Positions 7,565 to 28,256 of a DNA stretch of 64,000 nt are shown piece by piece. The position numbers and the translations under genes are program-made. Under the pieces are notes generated by a model that did no database searches, was not told where the DNA came from, and saw only the letters and a program-made list of their open reading frames with translations. The stretch is from Bacteroidota bacterium (GTDB taxonomy: Bacteria > Bacteroidota > Ignavibacteria > UBA10030 > UBA8401): NCBI GenBank assembly GCA_035298825.1, contig DATGXR010000444.1, positions 5,819 through 69,818 of the forward strand, read 5' to 3'. Each line of letters begins with the position of its first letter. Within the stretch, counting starts at the first letter, position 1.

Positions 7565-7596
7565 GCGACCGGTATGATCGATGTCGCTTTTTTTTT
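7565..7596 (+). terminator. plus-strand intrinsic-terminator-like hairpin + T9 with no annotated plus-strand gene upstream (orphan)
   Basis: GCGAC-(13 nt)-GTCGC followed by TTTTTTTTT, preceded by a second hairpin GCCTGCA-CGCGTA-TGCAGGC at 7540-7559. Both flanking genes are on the minus strand. Confidence 0.4.
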
Positions 7597-7656
7597 CCGG
7601 CCGCATGCCCGCCCGCGCTTTCAGTCTTCCATTTCAATCGTCAAACAATACCGGCC

Positions 7657-9120: not shown

Positions 9121-9211
9121 GAATGTCTCCGGAAAATTTTTTCAATTCTTTGTGTGTATGTATAAGTGTTTATCCTGCTTCATCCATCGTTTACTATAAT
9201 CGAAGGAGGAG

Positions 9212-12049: not shown

Positions 12050-12113
12050 CGTGGTTCCTCCTGTGTATATCGTGACTGGATTACAACCGAATGAATAGAT
12101 AGAGTGGGACCGC

Positions 12114-12506
12114 TTACTGTCGATGGGCTCCGGCCGCAGTCGTTGTTGTCGAGGCCGTTGTAAGATTGAGCGCCTGCGAAAACGTGGAAAGCGAACCTCT
12201 CACGACAGAGCGCAGCCGCGCATTTTCTTCTTCGAGCCTGCGCGCCCTGTCGTCGTCAACATACATGCGTCGGCTTTGCACCATGTGGCGCGTGTCGTTT
12301 GCAAGCAGCCAATGGAGATCGCATCCGAGCTCCATCAGTTTCAGCAGCATGCCCGCGCCGGGCAGACTTCTGCTGTTGAGATAGCCAGAGTGCAGCGTCA
12401 CCGGATTCATGCCAAGAGCAGCGGCAAACTCTTTGATCGTTCCGAACTTCTGCAATCCGAACGCCCGTAATTTCCGGGCCACTTCTTTTTTATCTGGACC
12501 GTTCAT
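12114..12506 (-). CDS. XRE/CI-like helix-turn-helix transcriptional regulator with C-terminal coiled coil
   Basis: …FGTIKEFAAALGMNPVTLHSGYLNSRS… HTH, then a leucine-rich heptad segment. Start moved to the ATG at 12506, preceded by GGTGGAGGAA. Confidence 0.7.
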   Translation of the reverse strand: MNGPDKKEVARKLRAFGLQKFGTIKEFAAALGMNPVTLHSGYLNSRSLPGAGMLLKLMELGCDLHWLLANDTRHMVQSRRMYVDDDRARRLEEENARLRSVVRGSLSTFSQALNLTTASTTTTAAGAHRQ

Positions 12507-12569
12507 CACAACATTCCTCCACCTCATTTGATTTGAGTATTGATGAGTATTTTCGCTTCTTCTGTGTGA

Positions 12570-12581
12570 TTACAATTGTAA
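12570..12581. promoter_or_regulatory. perfect 12-bp palindrome TTACAATTGTAA, about 64 bp upstream of the XRE regulator, in the divergent intergenic region
   Basis: Read directly from the sequence. Located between divergently transcribed XRE (minus) and OmpR-type regulator (plus) genes. Candidate autoregulatory operator. Confidence 0.4.
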
Positions 12582-12887
12582 AATACGAGCGCCGACATTC
12601 GTGCAAAACAATTATGGGACGAACAGCGTCCATTGTGTGATGAACACGCAAATTCGCGTGATCAGATCGCCTGTGGACGCGCCCTGAATAAATGTGATTA
12701 TCGACACACAGAGGTGACTCGCGACTTGTTTCTTTTCTCCAACTTTGCTATCATTTTAAGTACGTGGCTGAACTCGGGAAAGATGAAAAGAGCGAGAGCC
12801 CCGCATGCGGATGAGAGACAGAGAAGTTGCATAGACGGATGAAGAATTGGATCACAAAAATCTTCACACACCGGGGGAAGAACTTCG

Positions 12888-13586
12888 ATGACGAACCAAC
12901 CGACTAAACTGAATATCTCCATACTCCTCGTTGAAGACGAGAAGCGGCTTGCCCGCTCGGTCGAACGTCAGTTGATACGCGCCGGATACGATGTGGCGCT
13001 CGCGTTCGACGGCGTGACTGCATCGCAGATGATCACGTCGCAGGAGTTTCATCTTGTGCTGCTCGATCTGAACCTCCCTCAGAAATCCGGACTCGAAGTG
13101 CTGCGCGAGCTCCGCACGCAATCGTACACGACTCCCGTACTGATTCTCTCGGCGCGCGACGGCATCGAGGACCGGATCCAGGGTCTGGAGATCGGCGCCG
13201 ACGATTACCTGACCAAACCGTTTGATTCGGGCGAGCTCTTCGCGCGCATTCATGCAATACTGCGCCGATCGGGACTGCTGCGGGCGAACATTCTCCAAGC
13301 CGGCGATTTGACGATGGACGTGATCAAGCGCGTCGTCAAGCGCAACGAAAAAGTGATCTCACTGACGCAGACCGAATTCGCACTGCTTGAATTTTTTCTG
13401 CGCAACAAAAATACGATCCTCACGCGCAAGCGCATTGCCGAACAGGTCTGGGGATATAAATTCGAGACCGGCACGAACATCGTTGATGTGTACATGAGTT
13501 ATCTGCGCGATTCGATCGATAAGGATTTTTCAAAGAAGCTCATTCATACAGTCCGCGGCGAAGGGTTCATCATCAAGGAAGAGTGA
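12888..13586 (+). CDS. OmpR-family response regulator (REC + winged-helix Trans_reg_C)
   Basis: ILLVEDE…LLDLNLPQKSG…ADDYLTKPF receiver. C-terminal …LTQTEFALLEFFLRNKNTILTRKRIAEQVWGY…VDVYMSYLR… winged helix. Confidence 0.95.
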   Translation: MTNQPTKLNISILLVEDEKRLARSVERQLIRAGYDVALAFDGVTASQMITSQEFHLVLLDLNLPQKSGLEVLRELRTQSYTTPVLILSARDGIEDRIQGLEIGADDYLTKPFDSGELFARIHAILRRSGLLRANILQAGDLTMDVIKRVVKRNEKVISLTQTEFALLEFFLRNKNTILTRKRIAEQVWGYKFETGTNIVDVYMSYLRDSIDKDFSKKLIHTVRGEGFIIKEE

Positions 13587-13654
13587 GATCATTCAACCGG
13601 CGACCGTTTGGGTTTAAACACCGAACACGCATTATTGATCATCACACCACACCA

Positions 13655-13663
13655 CCCCCCCCC
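13655..13663. repeat. poly-C9 homopolymeric tract immediately abutting the start codon of the REC-PAS-HK gene
   Basis: …CACCACACCACCCCCCCCC-ATG. No SD is present for this gene. Confidence 0.6.
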
Positions 13664-16600
13664 ATGGAACGTGCGCACATACTGATTGTCGAAGACGAGC
13701 TGATTGTCGCCAAAGGGATCGAGTCTGATCTGAAAAGTTACGGCTACATGATTGACGGCATCGCCCGATCGTCCACCGCTGCGCTTGAGGCCGTGGCCGC
13801 GTCGCATCCCGATGTGATTTTGATGGACATCAAACTCTCGGGACAGATGGACGGCATCGAAGTCGCCGAGCATGTCATGCGATGCAACGATATTCCCGTG
13901 ATCTTCATCTCGGCCTACTCCGACGAGGCCACGCTCCAACGCGCCAAGGAAATCACCCCCTACGGCTACCTCTTAAAACCCTTCGAGTCCAAAGAGCTCT
14001 ACACGACAATCGAGATGGCGCTCTATAAGCATCGGATGGAGCGCCGGCTTAAAGACAGCGAACGCAGGCTGCGCCTGATCACCGACAGTATGCTCGATAT
14101 GGTGAGCGAAGTCGATCGCGAGGGCATGTTCACTTATCTGAGTCCTTCGCATAAACAGGTGCTCGGGTACGAGGATGAAGAGCTGATGCATCACCCGGTC
14201 GAGACGCTGTTTCATCCGGAGGACGTCGAGCGCGTGCGCGGCAGACTCGAGCAGGCCTTTGCTGAGGAACACGATCACATTACGCTTGAGATACGACTGC
14301 GTCACAAGGCCGGACACTATTTATGGCTCGAGGCGAATTGCAGCCGGATGCTCGATGCGAGCGGCGGACTCATCGGCGCCGTGATCGGCTCGCGCGATAT
14401 CACGGCAAAGCACGAAGTTGAAGAGCGCATGCACCGCAGCCAGGCCCAGCTTTCAAGCCTGATCGGCTCGGCGATGGACGCGATCATCATCACCGACGAG
14501 GAGCGCAAGATCGTCTTGTTCAACGCCTCGGCCGAATCGATTTTCAAATGCACGGCCGCCGAGGCGATCGGTCACACGATCAATCGCTTCATTCCCCCGG
14601 CGCTGCGCGAGAAGCACGACAGCTACATTCGCTCCTTCGCTGCGGTGGGCGAAGAGTACAGACGCTTCACTGGCATGATGACAAAGGCCCGGGCCATCCG
14701 CGCCACGGGCGAAGAATTTCCATTCGAGGCCACAGTATCCAAGACCGTGACCGACGGCAAGCGGTACTTCACGGTCATTCTGCGCGATGTGACAGAGCAC
14801 AAGCGGGCCGAGGATGCTCTTCGCGCAAGCGAGGAACGCTATCGCCTGGTGGTCACACAGATGCCGGCGCAGCTCTGGACGACAGATTTACATCTGCACT
14901 TCACCTCGACGCAGGGCATCGGCTTCCACACAATCGGCGTCGAACCCAACCAACTGGACGGTCTGGCCATACAACAGTTCTTCAATACAAGCGATCCATT
15001 GTATGCGCCGATTGCCGCACACCGGCGCGCGTTGGCCGGCGAGTCTCTCAATTACGAAGTCACGATCAACGGCCACACGTTCGAGGGCCATGTCGAACCG
15101 CTGCGCAATGCCCAGCAGGTCATCATCGGCACACTCGGTGTCGCCTTCGACATTACCGAGCGCAAATTTGCCGAAGAGGAACTGCAGAGGGAACGCAATC
15201 TGCTGCGGACGATCATCGAGGCCATTCCTGATGAAGTCTACGTCAAAGACCGTAACTGCCGGATGATTCTTGCCAACCGCACGGCGCTGCGTCAGTGCGG
15301 TGTGGCGACGGTCGACGAGATCCTGGGAAAAACCGACGTCGACTTGTTCGGCACTCCGATCGCCGAACAGCATCTGCGCGACGAACAGAAACTGATCGCC
15401 ACGGGCGTCCCCATGCTCAATGTGGAAAACAACCGCTATCATCCTGAAACCGGTTTTCTGCAGCGCTCGATTCTGATCTCAAAATATCCTCTGCGCGATG
15501 TCCAAGGCGGCATCATCGGACTCGTCGGTATTAACCGCGACAACACCGCCCGGCGACGGTCGATTGAGCAGATCCGCCGGGCTAATCTGGTGATCGAAAA
15601 CACGGACACGGTGATTTTCATCTGGCGCCACTCGCCCGACTTGGCGGTTGAATATGTCTCGAACAATATCTCGATCTTTGGATACACGCAAAGCGAACTC
15701 ATTGGCGGCGCAATTTCATTCTTATCGATCATTCACCCGAAAGATGCGCCCATGGTGCTCGAGCCCGCCGCCGGGCACACGAAGTCCCGTTCCTACCACT
15801 TGAAAGGCGACTTCCGGATCATCTGCAAGAACGGGGAGACACGCTGGGTTTCGTCGCGCACGAACACTGTCCGCAATTCGCATGGTGACGTGACGCATTA
15901 TGAAGGTCTGCTGGAAGATATCACCGAGCGCAAGCGCACAGAACATTCCCTGCAGCTCACGCAATTCTCGGTCGACCATGCCTCGGATTCCGTGTTTTGG
16001 ATCAGCAACACGGGAACATTCGTCTATGTGAACCGGGCTGCGTGTCGGCAGCTTGGGTACACAAGCGAGGAACTCCGCGCCCTTTCCATTCCCGACATCG
16101 ACACACAGTTAACGACCGCCAAGCTCTGGTCGCTTTGGCACGCATGCGAGGCGGCAGGCGACGCGGCGCTCAATTTTGATACAATTCATCGCTCGAAAAC
16201 CGGCGAGGAAATACCGGTTGAAGTCACCATCAACCGTATGGAGTTCGGCGACGTTGAATATTTTTTCGCTTCTGTGCGAAATATAAAAAAGCGCAAAGAA
16301 GCCGAGGAAGCATTACGCACATCGGTGACAAACGCGCTAAAGTTTTCAACACTTGCCGCACACGAACTCAGAACTCCCCTGGCCGTCATCCGGCATCAGT
16401 TGGAGGAAACGCTGACACAGGGCACGCCGGCGAAAAAGCTGCGTGAAACGATCACCACGGTTTACGACGAGATGCTCAACCTCTCCAATATTGTCGCCGA
16501 CCTTTTAAATCTAAGCAAGATGCAGGCCGGCAATTTCGAACTGCGTTCGGAGCGCATCGCGCTCCATACGCTGATACAGGAATTCTACGACGAGGCCCTC

Positions 16601-17032
16601 TTTTTATCGCGCCCGAAAGATATCACGATCGTTCTGAAGAAATTTCCCAAAGCATTCATCAATGCTGATGTGCCGCGCCTGCGCCAGGTGCTTTTCAATC
16701 TTTTAGACAACGCGCTGAAGCACACTCCCCCGCATCGTCAGATCCGCTTCGGGTATACGATCACTGAGACCGCCGCCCGGCTCTATTTCGAAGATACGGG
16801 CGAAGGCATCGTTCCCGAAAAACTTGCACGGATCTTCGATCCATATTACCGGGCGGGCGAGGATCTCGACAAATCGGATGGTATTGGCCTTGGATTGACG
16901 CTTGTGAAGTGGATCGTTGAACTCCACCATGGCACGATTAGCGTTGAAAGCATCCCCGATAAAGGCACATCCTTTTTCATCACCCTGCCGTTGGACCTGA
17001 CCGCGCCGCTGGCGTCGCCTGCGTCGCAGTGA
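13664..17032 (+). CDS. hybrid signalling protein: N-terminal receiver, about five PAS/PAC domains, HisKA, HATPase_c
   Basis: MERAHILIVEDE…ILMDIKLSGQMDG receiver. Repeated PAS-like blocks. H-box AAHELRTPLAVI. N-box LLDNALKHT. G-boxes DTGEGI / GIGLGL. Start set at the ATG at 13664, because the longer ORF from 13583 overlaps the OmpR gene. Confidence 0.9.
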   Translation: MERAHILIVEDELIVAKGIESDLKSYGYMIDGIARSSTAALEAVAASHPDVILMDIKLSGQMDGIEVAEHVMRCNDIPVIFISAYSDEATLQRAKEITPYGYLLKPFESKELYTTIEMALYKHRMERRLKDSERRLRLITDSMLDMVSEVDREGMFTYLSPSHKQVLGYEDEELMHHPVETLFHPEDVERVRGRLEQAFAEEHDHITLEIRLRHKAGHYLWLEANCSRMLDASGGLIGAVIGSRDITAKHEVEERMHRSQAQLSSLIGSAMDAIIITDEERKIVLFNASAESIFKCTAAEAIGHTINRFIPPALREKHDSYIRSFAAVGEEYRRFTGMMTKARAIRATGEEFPFEATVSKTVTDGKRYFTVILRDVTEHKRAEDALRASEERYRLVVTQMPAQLWTTDLHLHFTSTQGIGFHTIGVEPNQLDGLAIQQFFNTSDPLYAPIAAHRRALAGESLNYEVTINGHTFEGHVEPLRNAQQVIIGTLGVAFDITERKFAEEELQRERNLLRTIIEAIPDEVYVKDRNCRMILANRTALRQCGVATVDEILGKTDVDLFGTPIAEQHLRDEQKLIATGVPMLNVENNRYHPETGFLQRSILISKYPLRDVQGGIIGLVGINRDNTARRRSIEQIRRANLVIENTDTVIFIWRHSPDLAVEYVSNNISIFGYTQSELIGGAISFLSIIHPKDAPMVLEPAAGHTKSRSYHLKGDFRIICKNGETRWVSSRTNTVRNSHGDVTHYEGLLEDITERKRTEHSLQLTQFSVDHASDSVFWISNTGTFVYVNRAACRQLGYTSEELRALSIPDIDTQLTTAKLWSLWHACEAAGDAALNFDTIHRSKTGEEIPVEVTINRMEFGDVEYFFASVRNIKKRKEAEEALRTSVTNALKFSTLAAHELRTPLAVIRHQLEETLTQGTPAKKLRETITTVYDEMLNLSNIVADLLNLSKMQAGNFELRSERIALHTLIQEFYDEALFLSRPKDITIVLKKFPKAFINADVPRLRQVLFNLLDNALKHTPPHRQIRFGYTITETAARLYFEDTGEGIVPEKLARIFDPYYRAGEDLDKSDGIGLGLTLVKWIVELHHGTISVESIPDKGTSFFITLPLDLTAPLASPASQ

Positions 17033-17081
17033 ACGCTGATCGTCGCCGCCGCTGGCGGGACGTGTGTGAGACCTTCTTTCC

Positions 17082-17115
17082 TTAGAAGTTTCTAACATAT
17101 ATTAGAAAGTTCTAA
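17082..17115. promoter_or_regulatory. tandem palindromic operator: TTAGAA-GT-TTCTAA, 6-bp spacer, TTAGAA-AG-TTCTAA, followed by TTTGCTT (-35-like) and TATCAT (-10-like)
   Basis: Two perfect TTAGAA/TTCTAA inverted repeats with 20-bp centre-to-centre spacing, 85 bp upstream of the REC-DHp gene. The same architecture recurs at 26278-26311. Confidence 0.5.
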
Positions 17116-17200
17116 TTTGCTTGCAGTGTCGAATCTCCCTATCATTATACTGTAACCTGAACACTAATCTTTCTTACGGACACATCACCAGAAAACGACA

Positions 17201-17959
17201 ATGCCGGCACTTCACCTGCTGTTGATTGATGACGAAGATTCATTTCGACGCACATTCCAACAGACACTTACTTCCCAGGGATACACGGTCGATGTCTGCA
17301 CATCTGGCCAGCAGGCGCTCGACGTCCTTTCACACTCGAGGTTCGATGTCGTACTCCTGGACCATTCAATGCCCGAGATGACCGGCTTGAACGTCCTGCA
17401 GTGGATCCACGATCGGAAGATCGACGTTCCCGTCATCCTGTTGACCGGTCCTGGCATGGAAAGCGTGGCGACGCGCGGACTGAAACTCGGCGCGTATGAT
17501 TATTTGCGCAAGGATTATTTCGAATATAATCATATTCCGATCATCATCGACGGCGTGTACGAACGCTATCTCTTCCGCAAGGACCAGGAGTCGCGCGCGT
17601 TGTTGGAGAAGAAAAAGGAAAAGCAGCTTCCCTCACTCGAGATGTTGCGCGATACAGTCACATCGATTGCGCACATCGTCAATACAAATCTCTCGGTAAT
17701 CTCACTCAACATCGAAGAGCGCGCCCACGAACTTGAGGCGTTCATCTCGAATGAAGGCAAGGAGTATCTTGAAAAGGCCAACAGCGAAATGAAGCAGGAA
17801 TACAACCTCATTTCTTTGGTAAGCAAATCACTGATTGATCTTTCGCATGTTATGTACGAGCGGTTCAAAGGTGTCCAGGATACGCGGATGTTCGAAGAGG
17901 AAATGCAGAATAAAATCAAGACCATACAACGCGAGCACTCCGAGACGATGGAACTCTGA
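17201..17959 (+). CDS. response-regulator receiver fused to a C-terminal DHp/HisKA-like helical domain; no ATPase domain
   Basis: Receiver with all key residues (LLIDDED, phospho-Asp in LLDHSMP, T in LLTGPG, K in YLRKD). The C-terminal 110 aa are coiled-coil, with …TSIAHIVNTNLSVISL… resembling the HisKA H-box (SHELRTPLTAI). Confidence 0.8.
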   Translation: MPALHLLLIDDEDSFRRTFQQTLTSQGYTVDVCTSGQQALDVLSHSRFDVVLLDHSMPEMTGLNVLQWIHDRKIDVPVILLTGPGMESVATRGLKLGAYDYLRKDYFEYNHIPIIIDGVYERYLFRKDQESRALLEKKKEKQLPSLEMLRDTVTSIAHIVNTNLSVISLNIEERAHELEAFISNEGKEYLEKANSEMKQEYNLISLVSKSLIDLSHVMYERFKGVQDTRMFEEEMQNKIKTIQREHSETMEL

Positions 17960-17981
17960 AGACAGGAAAGGCATCCCTTCC

Positions 17982-18989
17982 ATGATTCAGCAGCGCATAG
18001 ACACCGCTTCTTCGACTGATGCAGACGCGTCGTGCCTTCCGGGCGCCGAGCGGCCGTTGCCTGTTTTTCTCAGCAGAAGCCCGGTGATCGAACAGATGAT
18101 GGCAACCATCTCGATGATCGCAAACTCTCCTGCCTCGGTGCTTATCACAGGGGAAAGCGGATCCGGCAAAGAGGTCATTGCCCAGTACATCCACGCCTGC
18201 AGCAACCGCTCGGCGCAACCGTTTATCGCCATCAATGCCGCGGCGCTGCCCAAAGATGTGATCGACAATGAACTCTTCGGACATGAGAAAGAAGCCTTCA
18301 CCGGCGCCATCTCGAAAAAATCAGGCTGCTTTGAGATGGCCGATCGCGGTACGCTCTTTCTTGATGAGATCGCCGAGATGCATCCCCAGACGCAGGCAAA
18401 GCTCCTGCGCGCCATCGAATCAAAGTCCTTCAGGAGGCTTGGAGGGAAGGAAGAAGTCACTGTCGATGTACGCGTGGTGGCTGCGACCAATAAGAACATT
18501 CAGCAGGCGATCCAATCCGGAGAATTCCGCGAGGACTTATTTTATCGCCTGAGCGTGATTGAACTGGCGCTTCCGCCCCTGCGCTCCCGACGGGAAGACG
18601 TTCCGCTGCTGACGGATTACTTTCTTGCTTTCTTTGCTCGAAAGTATGAACTTGCGCCGAAGACGGTGTCCCCTGAAGCGATGGAAATGATGAGCGCGTT
18701 CAACTGGCCGGGCAACGTCCGCGAGTTGCGCAACCTCACCGAAGGACTGACGCTTATGTGTCCGGATTGCTCGATCACACCCAAGGCGCTTCCCGAACGC
18801 ATCTCGAACCATGCGCCGCAGCCGCTGACGGTGTCGATTCCTGTGGGCACGCCGCTTGATATGGCCGAGCGCATCTTCATCAATCATACGCTTGCCTCTG
18901 TCGAGCAGAACAAATCGGCCGCTGCGAAAATTCTCGGAATCAGCCGCAAGACGCTTCACAACAAACTCAATGTGTTGCCCACTTCGTGA
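17982..18989 (+). CDS. sigma-54-dependent transcriptional activator (AAA+ sigma54-interaction domain + Fis-type HTH) lacking any N-terminal regulatory domain
   Basis: Walker A GESGSGKE. EAFTGA (GAFTGA variant). Walker B GTLFLDEI. Arg-finger region. C-terminal …KSAAAKILGISRKTLHNKL HTH. Start at the ATG at 17982 with AGGAAAGG upstream; the longer ORF from 17835 overlaps the upstream gene. Confidence 0.9.
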   Translation: MIQQRIDTASSTDADASCLPGAERPLPVFLSRSPVIEQMMATISMIANSPASVLITGESGSGKEVIAQYIHACSNRSAQPFIAINAAALPKDVIDNELFGHEKEAFTGAISKKSGCFEMADRGTLFLDEIAEMHPQTQAKLLRAIESKSFRRLGGKEEVTVDVRVVAATNKNIQQAIQSGEFREDLFYRLSVIELALPPLRSRREDVPLLTDYFLAFFARKYELAPKTVSPEAMEMMSAFNWPGNVRELRNLTEGLTLMCPDCSITPKALPERISNHAPQPLTVSIPVGTPLDMAERIFINHTLASVEQNKSAAAKILGISRKTLHNKLNVLPTS

Positions 18990-19059
18990 AGCGAGTCTGC
19001 ACGCAGTGGAAATTCTGCGCATCTGTCGAGACTGATCGCATCATGAGCGGGCTTCTTCC

Positions 19060-20091
19060 TTATTTTGTCAACACCATTCTCTTTACCGAGACGTACGAAC
19101 CCGCCTGCATCCGACAGAGGTACATGCCGCTGGCCAGACCTGCGGCGCTCCACGAGGTTTGATACCACCCCGGCAGCAACTCCCCATCGACAAGCACGGC
19201 CGAGACCCGACCAAGCATATCATACACTGTCACATTCACTCGCTGGCCCGAGGGAATGGAGAACCAGATTGAAGTTTCCGGATTGAAGGGATTCGGAAAA
19301 TTCTGTTCGAGCTTGAATTCACTGGCCGTTCGTTTCCCGTCAGAGACATGGCTCACCGCCGCTGTGGTTGTAAAATGATAGACGGAAGAAAAAACGCTCT
19401 TCCCATTCGGACTCGCACTCCTGACACGCCAGTAATAGGTTGTGTGGTTGTCGAGCATCAGCGTCTGCGTTGAGCACGCGCCCGCCACACTGCCCGAATC
19501 ACAAAGCGTCGCAAACAACGAATCACTCGAAAGTTGATACTCGTACCATGCCGCATGCGCTGTCTGTTGCCAATGAAGCATCACGCGTTGAGGCTGCTCG
19601 ATAGCATCGTTCACTGGCGTTAACAAAACGGGAGCCGTGGATACGTGCGGCAAGACTGCAGTCATCGATGCAATCACTGCGATGCCGTTGGGGACAAACA
19701 CATCCGGACCCGTGACGTAACGCGTTTGGACTGACGCATATTCGATATCCGTGCTGTGGCTCCAGAGACGGAACGTGATGTGCTCACCGATCGTGATGCC
19801 ATCCACCTCAGGGGTGAACACGTTGTCTCCCCAAACAGTCACTGCGCAATTCGTCCCATTCCAGATGACGCCTCCCACGCACATTCCGGAGACAGTGAAC
19901 GCACCGATCTCATCTCCTGGTGTCAGGCAGACCGTGTCGATCATCGGAGTGCTCGAGACCGGGATCGCCACGATCGCATCCAGCCCCGTGCCCGCGGAGA
20001 ATGAAAAATGGAGACACTGCGATCGTACCGAAAGCGGTGCAGCGATCATCAATGCCATCAGCATGGTTGCACGAATCATTGCTCGTCTCAT
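19060..20091 (-). CDS. secreted protein with Fn3-like domain and T9SS (Por) C-terminal sorting domain
   Basis: Signal peptide MRRAMIRATMLMALMIAAPLSVRSQ. C-terminus …FKLEQNFPNPFNPETSIWFSIPSGQRVNVTVYDMLGRV…YLCRMQAGSYVSVKRMVLTK matches the Por_Secre_tail pattern. Confidence 0.75.
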   Translation of the reverse strand: MRRAMIRATMLMALMIAAPLSVRSQCLHFSFSAGTGLDAIVAIPVSSTPMIDTVCLTPGDEIGAFTVSGMCVGGVIWNGTNCAVTVWGDNVFTPEVDGITIGEHITFRLWSHSTDIEYASVQTRYVTGPDVFVPNGIAVIASMTAVLPHVSTAPVLLTPVNDAIEQPQRVMLHWQQTAHAAWYEYQLSSDSLFATLCDSGSVAGACSTQTLMLDNHTTYYWRVRSASPNGKSVFSSVYHFTTTAAVSHVSDGKRTASEFKLEQNFPNPFNPETSIWFSIPSGQRVNVTVYDMLGRVSAVLVDGELLPGWYQTSWSAAGLASGMYLCRMQAGSYVSVKRMVLTK

Positions 20092-20161
20092 CGGTATTGG
20101 TTTCGTTTTTTTCACTGCATCGTCGTCACTGCAATGTGTCTTCGTTGAAGCCAACAGGAGA

Positions 20162-21982
20162 TCAATCGGGAAGAGGATTCGCCGGATAGACAAGCCTCAC
20201 CGGAGCAGAAACATAGACCATGTATCCGGCGCCCGGTTCGAGTGATACGAACTCCCTTATTCCCTTCGCCGGCCAGTAAATTTTGTTTGCACCGTTGACG
20301 ACAACAAGTTGCATATCCTTAATGCCTGCAAACGCTTCTGCCAGTGTCATGGAATCGGATCGCAGGTACGGAATGAGATTCATTCCCTGCTTGAGTTGTA
20401 ACGGCATGGTCGCCGGATTGATCATGCATCCGCTGAATGTGAGTGTCGTCTCCCTCTCGGCATAGATCCTGTAGCCGGAGCGTGGATCCCAGGTTGTGAT
20501 TGCGTCAATTGAAAGTGCGGGCCAGTACACGCTTCCGGCTCCATTCTTAACAATCACGCCCACCGAGCGAAGATCCCCGCAGATTGAACTCAACGATGAA
20601 TCATTGGGCTGAAGATAACTCGACACCATATTCCATCCCGGCTGCAGATGGACAATTTGTGTTGCCTGCGCCTCAGACGGTTCGACTGGTACCGGAGAGG
20701 CCAAACCGAGTGCGACTGCGATCGCACGCTGCAGCGGATGACGCCTGCCCGATGAGATTGTTTGAGCGGCATCCAGATCCGACACGAAATCGTATGTCAT
20801 GATGCCGCCGAAATGATTGGCATCCATCCAATTTACTTTTTCGACGAGACTCCGCGGCGATTCACCCACCGCAAAAAATTTCATTCCGGTCGCTACGCCG
20901 CCTTGGCCCCATCCCACCACGCCCTCATTGCGCAGAGCCGTGCCGCGTATCGAACGCACTTTGCGCACGTCATCCCATTCCTCCGTGCCGCCATTCGACT
21001 TGAGGGCTTCGATGCGATGATACGAGGCGTTCCCGTAATCAATGCCACCGATCGCCTGAAACAAGCTATCGACGTGACGAAGGACATACCCGAATGTCGG
21101 CACGCCGAGTCCGATGCGTTTCGGATCATGACCGGCGGCCACCCACTGCAGCGGCCCGCGCGTATCGTAGGCCTGGCCTTCGAATGTCGGATCGACCGTG
21201 CCTTTATGCAGAGGCGAGATGTGCCACGAGACGTTCGAATTGATCTTGCCATACCATGCATAAACATAATCATAGAGCTGCAGGTTGAACTGTTCGACCA
21301 TGTAATCCTGTTCGGGCGAATACAAGTCCTGTTGTCCGCTGCCTGCTGAGACCATCAGGAGTCCCGGAGCGCCCGAGGGGGTCTTCATCGTGTGAACACG
21401 GCGATGGAGCATGCGGATAAAGCGATTCACGATCTGGGATGAAGGAAGCGGAGCTGCCCAGGCTTCCCAGTCGAGTTCGACGCCGTCAAAATGTTTCCGT
21501 TCCGCCCACGTCACAAGCGTAGTGATGAAGAGCTCCGTACGCGCGGAATCAGCCGTCACATAATTTAAGTTCTTTGAATTGACCGCCTGGATCGTAATGA
21601 CAACTTTTACTCCCTTGCGGTGTGCGATCGTGACGAGTGAATCCAGATAGTGGGGATATCTTCCATCTCCCGGATTAGCCACACCGTTGAACTCCACGCA
21701 GACTGAATCCGATTCTGTATCCGAGGGCCGCGAAGGCGGCGGCCCGAACATATACGCCCAATAGGGCGCGGTCTTTGTGATATTCCCATTGTCGAACAAG
21801 ACCAAATGCGTCAGTCCGGTCCAATCGATTTCCCAGGGGGGCAAGGCATAGTCCGTCACGCCCAATGGCATCATCGACCATGTGGCATAATATGTGGTAA
21901 ACCATTTTGCCTGCCCCGCAGCGCTCAGCGAGAACAGGATACACAGCAGCACCCCCTGCAACAACCGATATGCGTGCTTCAC
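20162..21982 (-). CDS. glycoside hydrolase family 18 (chitinase-like) with about 280-aa C-terminal extension
   Basis: …FDGVELDWEAW… (DGxxxDWE catalytic motif, with E in place of the middle Asp). TIM-barrel N-half. Start moved to the GTG at 21982 (VKHAYRLLQGVLLCILFSLSAAGQ signal peptide), preceded by GGAGG. This removes the overlap with the next gene. Confidence 0.85.
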   Translation of the reverse strand: MKHAYRLLQGVLLCILFSLSAAGQAKWFTTYYATWSMMPLGVTDYALPPWEIDWTGLTHLVLFDNGNITKTAPYWAYMFGPPPSRPSDTESDSVCVEFNGVANPGDGRYPHYLDSLVTIAHRKGVKVVITIQAVNSKNLNYVTADSARTELFITTLVTWAERKHFDGVELDWEAWAAPLPSSQIVNRFIRMLHRRVHTMKTPSGAPGLLMVSAGSGQQDLYSPEQDYMVEQFNLQLYDYVYAWYGKINSNVSWHISPLHKGTVDPTFEGQAYDTRGPLQWVAAGHDPKRIGLGVPTFGYVLRHVDSLFQAIGGIDYGNASYHRIEALKSNGGTEEWDDVRKVRSIRGTALRNEGVVGWGQGGVATGMKFFAVGESPRSLVEKVNWMDANHFGGIMTYDFVSDLDAAQTISSGRRHPLQRAIAVALGLASPVPVEPSEAQATQIVHLQPGWNMVSSYLQPNDSSLSSICGDLRSVGVIVKNGAGSVYWPALSIDAITTWDPRSGYRIYAERETTLTFSGCMINPATMPLQLKQGMNLIPYLRSDSMTLAEAFAGIKDMQLVVVNGANKIYWPAKGIREFVSLEPGAGYMVYVSAPVRLVYPANPLPD

Positions 21983-22070
21983 TGATAACCTCCAATAAGA
22001 AAGAGAGTGAAAGTGGATACAGCGTGCCGATGATTCTCCAGGCACATGACATCTTTTGCACCGCGCTTTC

Positions 22071-24005
22071 TTAGTGCTTGGATCTCTGCGCAAACGGCTG
22101 GACCGAACGCAGACGGATATTGTCGTAATAGACGCATGCATGTCCGGGCATGTCGCGCCTCAGGAAAAATTTTGTGAAAGGCTCGGCTCCCGAAATCGGA
22201 ACGGTGATCGCATTCCATTGATCGGCTGTCAGCCGGACTTTCTGTGAAGTGTTGTTCGAGAAAACGATCTCGAGCAAGAACGATTCCGAGGGATAGGCAT
22301 CGAACGAGAGTTCCTTATACTCTGTTGCGAGGATCGGCGTTTCTTCGCCCCACGTGCCGTGTTGAAGCCAAAGCGCACCATGGTCTCCGTACTCGACTTT
22401 GATCGATCGTGAACCTGATTTGAATCGCTCCGTCGATTTAAAATTATTCACAACGCCCCAGGAGGCATCAATAAACGGCGCGCGTAGTTCCTCGTCGAAC
22501 ACCACAAGATCATCGAACGATGGACCTTTGCCCCGGTTGCTGACTGTAACGGTGATTTGCGATGCGCCGATATTATTTGCCTCATCCCATGCTTCGATTC
22601 TGATGAGATGGGTTCCGTTTGTCAGTCGCCAGGTATTGAGCGGCGCAGATACGGCGGGTGATTCTTCACACACCGGTCCGTAGGGGACGCCATCGATGAG
22701 AAATCGCAGGCCAACAATGCCGCGATTGTCCTGTGCTTCGGCCTTCAGGCTGATCACACCATTGATCGTTGCTTTTTCTTTGGGAAATGTGACACGCGCC
22801 CGCGGTTTTTCCGTGTCCTGTGTGCGAGGGCGAAGATCGCCCAGCGCGCGCGCGCGCGTGCAAACGGCAGCTGCCACACTTTGCATGAGCTGATTGCGGG
22901 CGCCCGGTTTTTCAGCCGGGAGATATCCCGCGCCCAGTTCGTAGACCATCACGCCGCCGAGACCGAGCGATCTGGCATATTCGACTTTCAGTCTGCAGCT
23001 CGAAGTATCCTCATATGAAATAAAGGTCGTGCCGTCGCCAAACCATGGCACTTGTGAAGAGTGATCCCAGTGCCGTCCTCGTTTTGGAATATCGCGCACC
23101 GTGCCCCAGTTGTGCTCGCCATAGGGACGCGAAGGTTCCACCGGCGGCGTTACATTGGTGAAGACTGTTGTGGTAAACGAAATGCTTACGCCGATTTTTG
23201 AGGCAGGATAGCCTTGGTCGAGCCACGACTTTGGTCCATGCCCGACCTGATCGATAGAAGTGCCGATATACGGTGTAAATTGGGTCGATGAAAAAACCGG
23301 CCCATTATACCCGGTGAGATTTTTCGAGTAATCGCCTCTGTAAAGCTCATATGTCATCGGATTGATCTGGTCGAACACTTCAACCATCGTCTTGCGATCA
23401 TAGGCCGGCAGCGGCGATTCGTTCGTTGCGGCGATAAAGATGCCGCGGGGCGATGACTGATCAAGCTCCTTGCGAAAGCGCCGGATGAGTTGATTGTGCC
23501 GCCATTTGTCCGCGAACTGAGGAAATTCCCAATCGAGTTCAATGCCGTCAATTTTCCATCGCCGCGCAAAGGCGCACGCGGCTGTCACGAAAACATCGAT
23601 GCGCCGATCGTCCTGGGCGATAAAACGCATATTGTCTGCTCCTGGCCCCCAAATGCCGCCGACTGAAAGAATGACCTTGACTCCTTTTTGATGAGCCGCG
23701 GAGACGAGTTCCTTTAAAAATTCGCCAGGCCGTCCGCAATCGACACCGTTGACAAGATTGGCGCTGTCCCGTCGTGTGACGAGCACATCAAGATACGGAG
23801 CCTGTCTCACCGGATTGGCAGAGAACAGCACCACATGCGTCATCAAAGAAAAATCAATCTCCGACACGGGCATCTGGTTATAATACCACCATGGATAATA
23901 TGCCGTGATCCACATCGGTTGACGTTGGGCCTCGAGCCGAATCGCAGAGACGCTGATGAGGACGCTCACAAGAAAGGCGGTGATCATTGCATGTCGTCGT
24001 CGCAT
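22071..24005 (-). CDS. glycoside hydrolase family 18 paralogue with C-terminal Ig-like and CBM-like domains
   Basis: Signal peptide MRRRHAMITAFLVSVLISVSAIRLEAQ. …IDGIELDWEFP… GH18 motif. Then an Ig-like segment and beta-sandwich-like tail. About 35-40% alignable by eye to the preceding GH18. Confidence 0.85.
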   Translation of the reverse strand: MRRRHAMITAFLVSVLISVSAIRLEAQRQPMWITAYYPWWYYNQMPVSEIDFSLMTHVVLFSANPVRQAPYLDVLVTRRDSANLVNGVDCGRPGEFLKELVSAAHQKGVKVILSVGGIWGPGADNMRFIAQDDRRIDVFVTAACAFARRWKIDGIELDWEFPQFADKWRHNQLIRRFRKELDQSSPRGIFIAATNESPLPAYDRKTMVEVFDQINPMTYELYRGDYSKNLTGYNGPVFSSTQFTPYIGTSIDQVGHGPKSWLDQGYPASKIGVSISFTTTVFTNVTPPVEPSRPYGEHNWGTVRDIPKRGRHWDHSSQVPWFGDGTTFISYEDTSSCRLKVEYARSLGLGGVMVYELGAGYLPAEKPGARNQLMQSVAAAVCTRARALGDLRPRTQDTEKPRARVTFPKEKATINGVISLKAEAQDNRGIVGLRFLIDGVPYGPVCEESPAVSAPLNTWRLTNGTHLIRIEAWDEANNIGASQITVTVSNRGKGPSFDDLVVFDEELRAPFIDASWGVVNNFKSTERFKSGSRSIKVEYGDHGALWLQHGTWGEETPILATEYKELSFDAYPSESFLLEIVFSNNTSQKVRLTADQWNAITVPISGAEPFTKFFLRRDMPGHACVYYDNIRLRSVQPFAQRSKH

Positions 24006-24069
24006 ATGGTATCTTGTCGGTTTCGTGATTGAATGGCGGCGGTTGTGATCAGCTGTGCGAAAAATCGGT

Positions 24070-26106
24070 TCAGGCAAATCTGGACTTCATCGGCCGCACA
24101 CACACACCTCCTGATGTATGCCTGCGGGCATGTGCGTCTTCAGCCACGGTCACAGCGTCTCCCGATTCACCTGCGCCGGCCGGTGCGTCAATGATGATGC
24201 TCCCACTGGCCTCCGTGGTATGCACGCGTTCTTCGTGCAAGATGTCTTCACAGATGACGCGCATCTTCCTGATCGGAATGTGATGTAGCTGCGCTGTCAG
24301 CCGAAGACGGGTCATCGACGTTTCCTTAATCGAATCAGAGCAAAGAATAATCTCGTCGACGCCGATCGTGCGGAGAAGGAATGAGAGTTTCCAATGTCCG
24401 CCATAGATCGGATAACCGTTGAGGGTCTTGCCTTCCAGCGTTGAATCATCGTCTAAAAATCCGATGGGCGAATAATTCGTCACTGTTGAATCCAGGATCC
24501 GATCAAGCATCATGATTCCGTTATCATCGGCGCCATAGAACAATACCCGCTTGCCGGCTTTGAGATCTTTATGTGACAAGTACTGCAAGACGCGAAACGA
24601 CATGCGAAAGCCGACAACAAGCGTCAACAGGAAATAGAAATCCAGCATCAATGTGAGCACGTGATCGGTCTTGAGTGGAGAGACAACGATGATTCCGGTG
24701 ATGATTGTGGCGGTGAGCGCGAATCCGACGCACTTGATCATTCGCAGCACATCGCCTAATCCCAAGAGCCTGAAGGTGCCGCGGTAGAGTCCAGAAATCC
24801 TGAACACGCTTACCTGGATCACCGTTACGGCAGCAAGCAGCTCCACCACGACGCGGGGTTGTTCTTGAGGCAGTCCATAGAGCCAGTGCGTGAGCGCGTA
24901 TGCGCAGGAAAAGGAAACAAGAATGAACGCGACATCAAAGAAGACCTGGAGCGCGTCCCGTTTCATCAACGGATGATTATAGAGCGGAAGAAATACTCCG
25001 TTTTGAAGTACGGCCATTTCTCTGTAGCGCAGTTGTCGAACACCAATCACGGTCGAGGCGCCGACGGCACCGAGCACAAATGAAGCGTCGAAATTACTCA
25101 TCACTGTCAACGAGAACGCGGTGATCCCGAGCGCGAACGAAATGGCATAGAGCACAAGCACCGCGTTGCGATGCGACAAACCGCGGGCGAGCAGTCGATG
25201 ATGGATGTGGCTCTTATCCGGCTGAAACATGGATTTCAATTTATTGAGGAGCGACGAATTGGCCGTTTGAGCATCGGGGAGGAACGAACGCAACAGCCGG
25301 CGGGCCATCGACAAGAAGGTGTCCATGATCGGCAGGCCCAGGGCCAGGATCGGAACAACGATTGCGAAGGCGGCCGAGCCTTTTGTCGATGAATGCATCG
25401 AAAGCACCGACAGGGCAAATCCCAGGAAAAGGCTTCCCGAGTCACCCAGGAAGATCCGGGCCGGATTGAAGTTGAACCGCAAAAATCCGATCAGTGCGCC
25501 CGACAGCAGGAGTGCCATGCATGCTGTTCCCATATCACCGTTGAATATCGCGATGGGTGAAATGGTGAGAAAAGCAATCGTTGCCACACCGGAAGCCAGG
25601 CCGTCGAGCCCATCGATCAGATTGATGGCATTCGTGATGCCGATCATCCAGATCATTGTCAATGGATAGTCGAACAGGCCGAGGCAGAGGGTCTGGTTCA
25701 TGAACGGAAGGCTGATCGTTGAGATCCTGAATCCGGCAAGATAAATGATGGTACTTAAAAGCAGCTGCACGAGAAATTTTTGCGCCGGTCCAAGCGGATC
25801 AATATCATCCCAGATGCCAAGCGCGAGCACAAGAAAAAGCACCATCGCGAGCGACAACCCCTCAGCAGTCGAAAGCCATGTCTGGGCGATTATCGACGAG
25901 TCGATCGTCACCAGCAGCAGGAACGAGGCGAAAAATCCCCCACAAATTGCAACGCCCCCCATCCTGGGCATGGCCTTCGTATGCACCTTTCGGGCATTCG
26001 GATAATCCATCGCACCGACTGCCGCAGCCAATTTCATGACCTGAGGTGTGAGAACGAGCGATATTCCCACCGACGCCGCAAACGCTATCATCAGATGTAG
26101 CACCAT
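24070..26106 (-). CDS. polyprenyl-phosphate HexNAc-1-phosphate transferase (WecA/MraY GT4-family) fused to a C-terminal TM + nucleotide-sugar-enzyme N-terminal-like domain (as in PglF/WbpM/CapD)
   Basis: N-half: multi-TM MraY/WecA-like (…DYPNARKVHTKAMPRMGGVAI…DGLDGLASG…). C-half: 4 TM then …KRVLFYGADDNGIMMLDRILDSTVTNYSPIGFLDDDSTLEGKTLNGYPIYGG… resembling the CoA-binding/Rossmann N-terminal region of CapD-type proteins. Start at 26106 preceded by GGGGAGGG. Confidence 0.85.
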   Translation of the reverse strand: MVLHLMIAFAASVGISLVLTPQVMKLAAAVGAMDYPNARKVHTKAMPRMGGVAICGGFFASFLLLVTIDSSIIAQTWLSTAEGLSLAMVLFLVLALGIWDDIDPLGPAQKFLVQLLLSTIIYLAGFRISTISLPFMNQTLCLGLFDYPLTMIWMIGITNAINLIDGLDGLASGVATIAFLTISPIAIFNGDMGTACMALLLSGALIGFLRFNFNPARIFLGDSGSLFLGFALSVLSMHSSTKGSAAFAIVVPILALGLPIMDTFLSMARRLLRSFLPDAQTANSSLLNKLKSMFQPDKSHIHHRLLARGLSHRNAVLVLYAISFALGITAFSLTVMSNFDASFVLGAVGASTVIGVRQLRYREMAVLQNGVFLPLYNHPLMKRDALQVFFDVAFILVSFSCAYALTHWLYGLPQEQPRVVVELLAAVTVIQVSVFRISGLYRGTFRLLGLGDVLRMIKCVGFALTATIITGIIVVSPLKTDHVLTLMLDFYFLLTLVVGFRMSFRVLQYLSHKDLKAGKRVLFYGADDNGIMMLDRILDSTVTNYSPIGFLDDDSTLEGKTLNGYPIYGGHWKLSFLLRTIGVDEIILCSDSIKETSMTRLRLTAQLHHIPIRKMRVICEDILHEERVHTTEASGSIIIDAPAGAGESGDAVTVAEDAHARRHTSGGVCVRPMKSRFA

Positions 26107-26277
26107 CGCACCCTCCCCTTTCACACTTACGAATTGATTCACCCGGCGTGTGTATGTGTGTGATGTTCCGCATCGCAATCTTTCTCTTGCAATGGATCAT
26201 GCCGCCCCCCGGCGCTGGAGAAAGATGTCATCACAACGAACACTTTCAACATAGAGTAATTCATGCGCCGATGCAAA

Positions 26278-26392: not shown

Positions 26393-27175
26393 TTAGCGTC
26401 GTACGTAGGCAGGCAAATTATCGGGTTCAATCCACTTGCCAGGGCACATGACCGCGGCATATTCAATTGCATTTTTCAAGTGACGCGTATTGCCGGGCCA
26501 ATGGTATGCCTGGCACAATTCAATGGCTTTCGGCGAGATGCCGACAACAGTCGAGTTAGAGCGGGCGCGCAATTCACGTAAAATTTTTTTTATCATCGGC
26601 GGAATGTCCTCTTTGCGATCTCTGAGCGCAGGCAGTTCGATAACGAGAGGACTGATGCGATAATACATCTCCCTGAGGAGGACGCCTTCGTCCATCAACG
26701 CTTCAGGATGGCGGTTGAGTGTGCCGATGATGCGGGTATGGATGTGGATGAGTTGCTCGCCTCCGACGCGTGTGATCGTCTGGTATTCGAGGGCCCGGGC
26801 CATTTTCATTTGCACAGGCAAGGGTAGCAATGCCAATTCGTTGATCAATACCGTGCCTCCGTCGGCTTCTTCAAACGCTCCGCGTCTGAGCACGACACCT
26901 TCGCGCGTCACGGCTTCGTAGCCGAAGAGATCCTTTTCCATCATCTCAGGAGAAAGCGCTCCGCAGTCGAATGGCAGAAACGGACTGCGTGCGCGTCGGC
27001 TGAGGCGATGAATGAATCGTGCAGCCCATTCTTTGCCCGTCCCCTGCTCGCCCACCAAGACAACACTGAGATCGCTCGCCGCGACCCGTTCCATTATCTT
27101 GAGCACTTCCTGCATCGCCGCGCTGCGCACGATATCGAGATCACGTTCGTTCACTGTATGTATGGATTCCATCAT
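26393..27175 (-). CDS. degenerate sigma54-EBP-like AAA+ domain protein (no receiver, no HTH; GAFTGA and Walker B motifs altered)
   Basis: Walker A GEQGTGKE is present. The GAFTGA position reads RRGAFEEADGG. Walker B reads GGTVLINEL (hhhhNE instead of hhhhDE). Sensor-II/Arg region RISPLVIELPALRDRKEDI is retained. The protein ends right after the AAA+ lid. Confidence 0.8.
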   Translation of the reverse strand: MMESIHTVNERDLDIVRSAAMQEVLKIMERVAASDLSVVLVGEQGTGKEWAARFIHRLSRRARSPFLPFDCGALSPEMMEKDLFGYEAVTREGVVLRRGAFEEADGGTVLINELALLPLPVQMKMARALEYQTITRVGGEQLIHIHTRIIGTLNRHPEALMDEGVLLREMYYRISPLVIELPALRDRKEDIPPMIKKILRELRARSNSTVVGISPKAIELCQAYHWPGNTRHLKNAIEYAAVMCPGKWIEPDNLPAYVRR

Positions 27176-27260: not shown

Positions 27261-28175
27261 TCAATGGAGCGACAGCGGAACAGCAAGCGTCACATAGTGC
27301 ATGCGTTCGGCAGCGACACTTGAAGACACTCCATAATCGATCTCGAGATAGCGCGTGAGAATACCGACTCCCGCCCTTCCAACTGCGGTCACGGGACCGG
27401 AGACGATACCTCCTCTGAGCACCAGAAATTTCCATGGAAAAAGTTCGACTCCAAGCCGGTAGACCAGACGCTCTTCGCCGCTGATGCTTTGGTTCGATAG
27501 ACAGATCGCGACAATCGGCCGGTCGTGTGTCGCCGGATAGCGCCAGGCAGCACCGAAAGTGACCGAGCGTGGAATGTTCGCCTGGGTCTCGAGGATCTCA
27601 GCTCCATGGTCATCCCGCTTCACGACGATGCCTGAACCTAATCCGATGAAGGAGACTCCGTAGGTAAGTGAAGGAAAGACCGAATACATCATACCGAAAC
27701 CCGCCGTATGGCTCGAAGCGCGCCGGCCGTTGAGGTCAACTGAACGAAAATTATAGACCATGCCGATCGCCCATGATGTCATTGGACGCAGCGCATAACT
27801 GATTTCGGCTCCCATCATCTTGCCGGTACTTTTCGTCCACTCGGATTGATCGAACAGCGCGCCTTCGGCGCCCAGCGCAACGGAGTGAGACTCGGTCGCA
27901 AGGACAGGCAGTGTGACGAGTGAGCGCATAAGACGTTCATCCATGCGCACGCCTGCGGTAGCAGTCACATCAAGCGACTGCAGGAACGCAAGACAGGCCG
28001 GATTCCAAAGCACACTGCCAGCGTCGTGGATGTCGGCGACAGCCGCATCGCCCAACGATACGCTGCGTGCCGAAGCAAGCGACTGCGTGAATGAAAAACT
28101 GTTATCCGTCTGTGCACGGGCACACAAGGCAGCCGCCACAATCATCAACACCAGATATCCGCCGTGTCGTCGCAT
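27261..28175 (-). CDS. outer-membrane beta-barrel protein, PorV/PorQ (FadL-like) family candidate
   Basis: Signal peptide MRRHGGYLVLMIVAAALCARAQ. N-terminal …SVSLGDAAVADIHDAGSVLWNPACLA… matches the PorV/PorQ-type motif (S.GLG.A.vA…D…NPAgLA). Alternating beta-strand pattern. AAGGAGA SD upstream. Confidence 0.6.
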   Translation of the reverse strand: MRRHGGYLVLMIVAAALCARAQTDNSFSFTQSLASARSVSLGDAAVADIHDAGSVLWNPACLAFLQSLDVTATAGVRMDERLMRSLVTLPVLATESHSVALGAEGALFDQSEWTKSTGKMMGAEISYALRPMTSWAIGMVYNFRSVDLNGRRASSHTAGFGMMYSVFPSLTYGVSFIGLGSGIVVKRDDHGAEILETQANIPRSVTFGAAWRYPATHDRPIVAICLSNQSISGEERLVYRLGVELFPWKFLVLRGGIVSGPVTAVGRAGVGILTRYLEIDYGVSSSVAAERMHYVTLAVPLSLH

Positions 28176-28256
28176 CCTTGCTTGTCTCCTTGAGCGTGAA
28201 ACCACAGATCCATCACACGATGAGTGTTCTTTTCCACCTGTCGTGTTGTGGTGTGA

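Follow-up and report, generated by a model that had tools for sequence, protein, structure and literature searches.

Introduction

Group-4 bacterial enhancer-binding proteins (bEBPs), built of an AAA+ domain and a helix-turn-helix (HTH) domain, are controlled by a protein acting in trans (PMC7175178). Few such trans partners of receiver-less sigma-54 activators are known (PspA, HrpV). Here we analyse a 64-kb stretch of Bacteroidota contig DATGXR010000444.1 (the window, to which all coordinates and strands refer unless another locus is named), in which the gene for a receiver-less activator, EBP1, directly follows that for REC-DHp, a 252-aa protein consisting of a receiver (REC) and a tail that resembles the dimerisation and histidine phosphotransfer (DHp) domain of histidine kinases. 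The system appears to combine a derivative of a Rec-controlled histidine kinase (Rec-HK) lacking the catalytic and ATP-binding (CA) domain with a group-4 bEBP, within an apparently sigma-54-dependent polysaccharide locus that also encodes a pseudo-EBP, EBP2.

LvrB of Leptospira is the prototype Rec-HK, with a Rec-DHp-CA layout (PMC13269768). REC-DHp shares with LvrB-type Rec-HKs the N-terminal receiver and the passage from helix alpha5 through a signalling helix into a HisKA-type DHp hairpin, with H158 lying near LvrB H161 (PMC13269768). In contrast to these kinases, REC-DHp has no CA/ATPase domain and its H-box has decayed, and it therefore cannot autophosphorylate. EBP1 resembles the activators of the PspF/PspA and HrpR-HrpS/HrpV systems in consisting of AAA+ and HTH domains without a regulatory domain, and its candidate partner is likewise an adjacent coiled-coil hairpin protein. 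The candidate partner here differs from theirs in having a phospho-receiver, through which two-component input would reach an EBP that lacks one. The HrpR/HrpS system also parallels the presence of a second, paralogous EBP-like protein, although in EBP2 the sigma-54 contact loop, the Walker B Asp and the DNA-binding domain are all missing.

NifL derives from a histidine kinase but does not use its H domain for phosphotransfer; it controls the sigma-54 activator NifA stoichiometrically, and by analogy the same control logic may apply to REC-DHp and EBP1; NifL, however, has a GHKL nucleotide-binding domain and PAS sensors but no receiver, and NifA has a GAF domain. The histidine phosphotransferases Spo0B and ChpT are dimers of DHp-like helical hairpins without kinase activity, and differ from REC-DHp in keeping the phospho-His and a CA-like domain and in lacking a receiver fusion. 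DrdR of Xanthomonas campestris, an output-less regulator, binds the EBP FleQ and inhibits its ATPase, and also acts on PilB/PilT (PMC13535131). It shares with REC-DHp, as proposed here, the action of a response regulator without DNA-binding output on an EBP, and its PilB/PilT link echoes a clade of REC-DHp genes that follow genes for PilB-like ATPases; DrdR is a tandem REC protein without a DHp-like tail, however, and FleQ has its own N-terminal domain. FleT of Rhodobacter sphaeroides was, according to a 2020 review, the only known bEBP without both regulatory (R) and DNA-binding (D) domains (PMC7175178). EBP2 is likewise an AAA+-only protein of the bEBP family, but it also lacks GAFTGA, and most members of its family lack the Walker B Asp.

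REC-DHp is a conserved receiver protein encoded beside a receiver-less activator

Four genes follow one another on the plus strand:

12888-13586, plus strand: OmpR-family response regulator (REC and Trans_reg_C by Pfam), which opens the regulatory operon
13583-17032, plus strand: histidine kinase with an N-terminal REC, five PAS, HisKA and HATPase_c (Pfam)
17201-17959, plus strand: REC-DHp, 252 aa (Pfam, alignments, AlphaFold2, hhalign)
17982-18989, plus strand: EBP1, sigma-54 activator of 335 aa with AAA+ core, lid and Fis-type HTH (Pfam)

The kinase is 1149 aa long from the GTG at 13583 or 1122 aa from the ATG at 13664, and a 22-nt gap separates the REC-DHp and EBP1 genes. An earlier note, made from the letters of the window, had placed a REC protein without ATPase beside an EBP without regulatory domain, next to an OmpR regulator and a REC-PAS kinase. 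Open reading frames (ORFs), Pfam matches and homologue lengths bear out the first part, and Pfam confirms both neighbours; several receiver domains are thus encoded near the REC-DHp gene. The OmpR-type regulator gene is syntenic in loci L001, L007 and L008. Scanning 12400-19200 for sigma-70 promoters and terminators was uninformative.

Pfam Response_reg matches residues 7-106 of REC-DHp with 96 bits against a cut-off of 30.2, while residues 107-252 (145 residues after the receiver) have no Pfam match above threshold and no HATPase_c. An alignment of 40 sequences shows no variation at D11, D54 and K104 and hardly any at T82; with 98 sequences D54 (nt 17360-17362) and K104 still do not vary, and conservation of D11 and T82 stays at 90% or more. 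Of 277 homologues, the best 120 are nearly all of about 245-270 aa with REC alone in Pfam, and this uniform size and architecture indicates that REC-DHp is a real conserved family and not a frameshift fragment. A frameshift or pseudogene origin of the split was rejected on the many full-length homologues of the same size that both genes have. The protein of the window is 100% identical to one from a metagenome-assembled genome labelled "Bacteroidota bacterium", and its relatives are labelled Ignavibacteriae, Ignavibacteriales or Bacteroidota.

In EBP1, Sigma54_activat matches with E 1e-66 over residues 31-195, and AAA_lid_14 and HTH_8 come after it. Its AAA+ domain begins near residue 28, leaving no N-terminal regulatory domain. 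The upstream frame is open for 49 codons only (TTG at 17835) and overlaps the REC-DHp 3' end in another frame. A receiver hidden in an in-frame upstream extension, which the earlier note had considered, was ruled out, since the 49-codon stretch encodes none and close homologues have no REC. Among the best 120 homologues 89 are shorter than 370 aa, and the closest (55-80% identity) have about 330-360 aa without REC, so that the missing receiver is genuine; more distant EBPs (at most 46% identity) carry a fused receiver. Walker A (GESGSGKE) and Walker B (LFLDEI) are present. The L1 loop reads EAFTGA (residues 104-109, window about 18291-18308), keeping F and T with the first G replaced by E. This is a clade signature, with EAFTGA in 86 of 89 receiver-less relatives and GAFTGA in 24 of 28 REC-fused ones. 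Judged from its motifs, EBP1 looks competent but without control in cis.

The pair had been described as a split NtrC-like module. Fission of an NtrC-type gene was rejected: the REC of REC-DHp is only 27% identical to that of the nearest fused EBP (P0178), the ordinary level between any two receivers, which excludes a recent fission, and the DHp-like tail has no counterpart in NtrC.

A HisKA-like hairpin in the REC-DHp tail

An AlphaFold2 model of REC-DHp (98-sequence alignment; predicted local distance difference test score, pLDDT, 85) continues alpha5 as a single 70-residue helix (109-179); after a four-residue turn the chain runs back as helix 184-223, with a weaker third helix (229-251) beyond. 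A model of the tail alone agrees with the full model, the two giving the hairpin a pLDDT of about 86-90. The monomer model thus has the antiparallel two-helix hairpin fold expected of a DHp-like tail, the hairpin spanning about residues 149-223; its His lies 22 residues before the turn, a geometry that fits a HisKA DHp.

A DHp profile was built from 82 HisKA kinases in the fetched loci, anchored on the DHp motif of the window kinase (AAHELRTPL), and compared with the tail alignment by hhalign. The match has a probability of 87.9% (E 3e-6) over 67 columns across both helices. It aligns H158 with the phospho-His of the kinases (kinase motif aHELRnPL, tail motif aHIVNTNL). As controls, a reversed profile scored 0.7% and none of 40 column-shuffled versions exceeded 1.7%. 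The DHp-like character that the earlier note had seen in the tail is therefore borne out by both the model and the profile comparison.

Profile searches of the kind the note had called for recovered the sigma-54 activator domain of EBP1 clearly, while HisKA scored 11.3 bits on the window tail, under the gathering score of 26.9, and Hpt gave no match; the model, a hairpin plus one helix, is also not a monomeric four-helix bundle. Only 3 of 35 family tails match HisKA at all, below threshold (best E 0.014), and HisKA is the sole Pfam family matched, sub-threshold, by more than two of the 35. Searches of the Protein Data Bank by sequence, with the single tail and with its profile, returned coiled-coil noise and one histidine kinase at E 1.1. 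In Foldseek, REC matches dominate for the full model, and for the tail alone the best E is 0.6, in a list that mixes ERS1 DHp, kinases, PspA, ESCRT-III and other hairpins. Because Foldseek does not discriminate, the DHp identity rests on the hhalign result with its controls, by which the REC-DHp tail is a diverged HisKA-type DHp. REC-DHp as a whole therefore has the REC-signalling helix-DHp layout of a Rec-controlled kinase, but without its catalytic part.

A profile search of 1.84 billion representative proteins found the tail in 108 clusters only, nearly all of about 250 aa, a length too short for a kinase ATPase or an AAA+ domain. Ten atypical matches scanned with Pfam had neither HATPase_c nor AAA+. 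P0252 is a glycosyltransferase-REC-tail fusion; two long matches, P0305 and P0334, were dismissed as coiled-coil artefacts.

Recurrence of the gene pair and possible control of EBP1 in trans

Fourteen EBP1-clade loci (at least 55% identity, enough upstream DNA) were obtained from an EBP1-seeded metagenome search, four contig look-ups, the window and L001/L008. In ten of them, from several lineages, EBP1 is directly preceded by a REC-DHp gene: the window, L001/L008, L086, L087, L089, L090, L091, L093 (two copies), L169 (two copies) and L170. The paired REC-DHp proteins are 36-80% identical to that of the window. L087, L090, L091 and L170 show no kinase gene in the 1.6-6 kb available upstream, so that REC-DHp is the sole phospho-acceptor seen near the EBP there. 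In a neighbour-joining ordering the EBP-adjacent members are scattered among members from other contexts. Literature searches found no description of a REC-DHp and receiver-less EBP pair, and the earlier remark that it is not a described paradigm seems right.

Our preferred reading, tentative and somewhat short of probable, is that REC-DHp gates EBP1 in trans as a phosphorylation-switched coiled-coil regulator. REC-DHp would be a response regulator with the architecture of a Rec-controlled histidine kinase, its ATPase domain lost and its H-box decayed. A kinase would phosphorylate D54, the candidate here being the adjacent REC-PAS kinase, the presumed phosphodonor. As in LvrB, phosphorylation would shift the register of the alpha5/signalling-helix coiled coil and of the dimeric DHp-like bundle, and the bundle would serve as a phosphorylation-switched protein-binding surface and not as a site of His phosphotransfer. 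In the EBP-linked subfamily the partner would be EBP1, whose ring assembly or ATPase might be gated in trans, in either direction. EBP1 would in turn open the sigma-54 promoters of the adjacent polysaccharide cluster, and EBP2, encoded within that regulon, would probably modulate EBP1 rings. If this holds, a phospho-receiver partner shows how an activator, after losing its receiver, can still be reached by two-component input; it also shows a fate of a Rec-controlled kinase after ATPase loss, whose decayed DHp could become a switchable docking surface.

Several observations weigh against control of EBP1 by REC-DHp. Four of the 14 EBP1-clade loci (L088, L097, L171 and L172) have no REC-DHp gene upstream of EBP1. 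In a sample seeded with REC-DHp instead (80 genome loci, the best 80 of 197 matches, with 92 REC-DHp genes), a receiver-less EBP stands downstream of one gene in 92. The closest orthologous loci, L006 (80% identity) and L007 (74%), keep the OmpR-kinase-REC-DHp order and lack EBP1. Their synteny with the window ends at 17951/17952, at the end of the REC-DHp gene, and is found again from about 55932/56379; the roughly 38-kb block between (about 17960-55930), comprising EBP1 and the entire polysaccharide cluster, is missing at the syntenic position, where they have only a WecB-like gene. As the left boundary of this block is the 22-nt gap after the REC-DHp gene, its absence from L006 and L007 makes the REC-DHp/EBP1 junction an indel boundary in the window lineage. 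The profile search of representative proteins yielded no fusion of the tail to an AAA+ domain, and the sole informative tail fusion, P0299 (396 aa, REC-tail-REC), points to REC domains as partners. The pair is not obligate.

Some of these observations suit the main alternative, which we regard as possible but rather doubtful, namely that REC-DHp acts within the two-component circuit without touching EBP1, its bundle docking receivers or the kinase DHp. Towards the OmpR-type regulator and the kinase as a pair it would serve as phosphatase, phosphate sink, connector or inhibitor, with EBP1 controlled by its expression level, by EBP2 or otherwise. The trio preserved without EBP1 in L006 and L007 and the REC-tail-REC fusion both favour it, REC domains being the natural partners of DHp domains, as does the breadth of the family: 15 of the 92 sampled genes directly follow a kinase and 18 stand in tandem pairs. 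The H-box points the same way. H+4 (column 162), the HisKA phosphatase position of the E/DxxT/N motif, is T or N in 74 of the 98 aligned members (T 44, N 30), and H+6 is Leu in 84, while H+1, where kinases require an acidic residue, is Ile in 70. Retention of T/N with loss of the acidic residue matches a phosphatase-only DHp, and the T/N at H+4 would fit a role on receiver domains, another point against the preferred reading. The pattern is also compatible with a DHp retained as a dimerisation and docking surface, possibly a phosphatase surface. Action within the circuit leaves unexplained, however, why REC-DHp stands directly upstream of EBP1 in ten of 14 loci, including loci without a kinase or OmpR gene in the sequenced flank, and EBP1 has no receiver for a DHp to act on.

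The earlier note had read the locus as a multi-step His-Asp phosphorelay. In the window lineage, where the H-box-like motif that it pointed out, IAHIVNTNLSVI, is present at H158 (nt 17672-17674), REC-DHp might act as a fused Spo0F and Spo0B-like relay, from the kinase His to D54, to H158 and on to a second receiver, that of the OmpR-type regulator or the N-terminal REC of the kinase. H158 falls on the phospho-His column in a hairpin of suitable geometry, several receivers are encoded nearby, and the window clade, L001, L091, L093 and one L169 copy all keep this His. Across 98 family sequences, however, column 158 is Q in 45, H in 28, E in 17, L in 5, R in 2 and G in 1. Among the 11 readable REC-DHp genes at or beside EBP1, six have H there, two have C, and one each has S, Y and L. 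Most of the family, five of these 11 among them, thus has Q, E, L, S, C or Y in place of the His. Non-conservation makes a His phosphorelay unlikely as a shared mechanism, and to judge from the alignment the H-box is probably not a functional phospho-site across the whole family. REC-DHp also lacks the CA-like domain of Spo0B and ChpT as well as an acidic H+1, and the path would end on a receiver, which EBP1 does not have. We consider a relay in the window lineage quite improbable. It is slightly more improbable that the adjacency is meaningless, a polysaccharide island with EBP1 at its edge having inserted beside an unrelated regulator gene: the synteny break does fall exactly between both genes and each partner is found without the other, but at least four divergent lineages (REC-DHp 36-80%, EBP1 57-80% identical) share the gene order while differing in their upstream neighbours.

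Among the 92 sampled genes, 21 directly follow a PilB/T2SSE-like ATPase and form a monophyletic clade; overlapping these, 23 have an NtrC-type EBP within 8 kb upstream, typically at 4-6 kb. A further 43 fall into none of the EBP-paired, PilB, tandem and kinase categories. If REC-DHp does gate EBP1, the family, given also its place directly after PilB-like ATPases, could be a general phospho-dependent modulator of ring ATPases.

Genes of the PilB-type clade lie directly downstream of T2SSF/T2SSE (PilC/PilB-like) genes in L003, L004, L009-L012, L015-L017, L019, L020, L024, L027 and others, with TPR-REC, single REC and hybrid kinase genes downstream. Elsewhere REC-DHp genes head capsule loci with a Wzb phosphatase, Wzc and a UpxY-like antiterminator and without an EBP (L035, L039, L047, L060), or stand directly upstream of hrcA-grpE-dnaJ (L054, L065).

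Candidate sigma-54 promoters of the polysaccharide cluster

The 38-kb block that begins with EBP1, together with its conserved sigma-54-type promoters and a second, degenerate EBP-like gene, had escaped the earlier note. It contains the following features:

19060-20193, minus strand: secreted protein with a type IX secretion system (T9SS) C-terminal sorting domain (Pfam Por_Secre_tail), at the end of the minus-strand operon and convergent on EBP1
20162-22141 and 22071-24077, minus strand: two proteins of glycoside hydrolase family 18 (GH18; Pfam)
24070-26178, minus strand: WecA-like initiating glycosyltransferase (Glycos_transf_4 and CoA_binding_3 by Pfam)
26393-27175, minus strand: EBP2, 260 aa, AAA+ core and lid only (Pfam; bEBP family)
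27261-28205, minus strand: conserved protein of about 310 aa, encoded between Wza and EBP2; its match to the PorV/PorQ family is weak and under the cut-off
28257-28970, minus strand: Wza-type polysaccharide export protein (Poly_export and SLBB), which starts the minus-strand operon
29170-29184, minus strand: sigma-54-type -24/-12 element TGGCACATTTCTTGA, upstream of the Wza operon
29419-29433, plus strand: weaker sigma-54-like element GGGCATACAGATTGC, facing the divergent Wzz/Wzy/flippase/glycosyltransferase operon
29485-55893, plus strand: Wzx/Wzy-type biosynthesis genes, namely Wzz/GNVR, ParA-like kinase, Wzy_C, flippase, glycosyltransferases of families 1, 2 and 4 (GT1/GT2/GT4) and sugar-modifying enzymes (Pfam)

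The minus-strand operon is thus transcribed in the order Wza, PorV-like, EBP2, WecA-like, the two GH18 genes and the T9SS-sorted protein. EBP1 is linked to such genes throughout its clade. In every readable EBP1-clade locus it is flanked by a WecA-like GT4 transferase (660-700 aa), a GH18 gene or both; the WecA-like gene is directly downstream of EBP1 in other lineages, and GH18 genes accompany EBP1 in L087, L093, L169, L171, L172 and L001. The gene for the T9SS-sorted protein is syntenic in L001 and L168.

The pattern TGG[CT]A[CT]N5TTG[CAT] has a single match in the window, at 29184-29170 on the minus strand. In L166, L167 and L168, whose EBP2 proteins are 53-66% identical to that of the window, it has exactly two matches each, both in the Wza/Wzz intergenic region and facing outwards:

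L166, 7748 and 8053, divergent: back-to-back -24/-12 elements, the sole matches in the locus
L167, 8012 and 8228, divergent: the same
L168, 8018 and 8232, divergent: the same

Their plus-strand elements, TGGCACGTGAGTTGC, TGGCACGAGAATTGA and TGGCATGGGAATTGA, match better than the counterpart at 29419. Seven TGGCAC-N5-TTG elements in about 1.8 kb compare with about 0.09 expected, the background of the tight pattern being 0.049 per kb in the 1.76 Mb of DNA fetched. When the four Wza/Wzz intergenic regions are aligned with MAFFT, the TGGCAC...TTG block alone is well conserved. The signal emerged only with the tighter pattern and cross-locus comparison; TGGCAC-N5-TTGC at two mismatches showed no enrichment across the window (70 observed, 70 expected). 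No conserved enhancer-like inverted repeats lie between the divergent promoters, and rpoN is not among the scanned ORFs of the window. Taken together, the promoter-like elements and the gene linkage are good evidence that the polysaccharide cluster is sigma-54-dependent with EBP1 as its putative activator. Among environmental Ignavibacteria-like Bacteroidota the cluster is widespread.

The two large GH18 (chitinase-family) proteins lie inside a polysaccharide biosynthesis operon and are kept across loci. This suggests that they process a polymer containing GlcNAc and do not serve to forage on chitin.

EBP2, a degenerate AAA+-only paralogue

EBP2 is 33% identical to EBP1 and has neither a regulatory domain nor an HTH. 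In the window protein the GAFTGA loop is replaced (YEAVTREGV) and the Walker B DE has become NE. Across 71 family members (242-286 aa) Walker A is intact and the loop reads YEALTRDG-V, and in 60 of the 71 the Walker B Asp is N, K or R. The architecture of EBP2 is FleT-like, but with its loop and Walker B altered it is probably not itself an activator; it looks like a pseudo-ATPase subunit or regulator, and may act as a modulatory subunit of the ring.

The order Wza - PorV-like - EBP2 is fixed in all four loci examined, the window and L166-L168, including the position of the PorV-like gene; a WecA-like gene comes next after EBP2 in the window, L167 and L168, and a giant adhesin-like ORF takes its place in L166. 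EBP2 shares contigs with EBP1.

A fuller version of the preferred reading would make the locus a three-part sigma-54 device, in which the CA-less, His-degenerate Rec-DHp protein is a detachable phospho-switched subunit of EBP1 and the dead AAA+ paralogue EBP2 co-assembles into the ring as feedback. No such device is known to have been described, and we consider this version unlikely. The locus nevertheless offers a test bed, with candidate promoters at 29170-29184 and 29419-29433, one apparently competent activator, one pseudo-activator and a polysaccharide output.

Neighbouring genes

Upstream of the regulatory operon, L007 lacks the TonB-dependent receptor region (9212-12049) and its neighbours between syntenic flanks (window 7302-12905), a second indel beside the operon. 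A 137-aa ORF at 12114-12527 on the minus strand, divergent from the OmpR gene, has no Pfam or NCBIfam match; its middle resembles a helix-turn-helix by eye, and the DNA is kept in L008. A second sensor is encoded at 4359-7469 on the minus strand, with 1036 aa comprising Reg_prop beta-propeller repeats, Y_Y_Y, a LytS-type His_kinase domain and HATPase_c.

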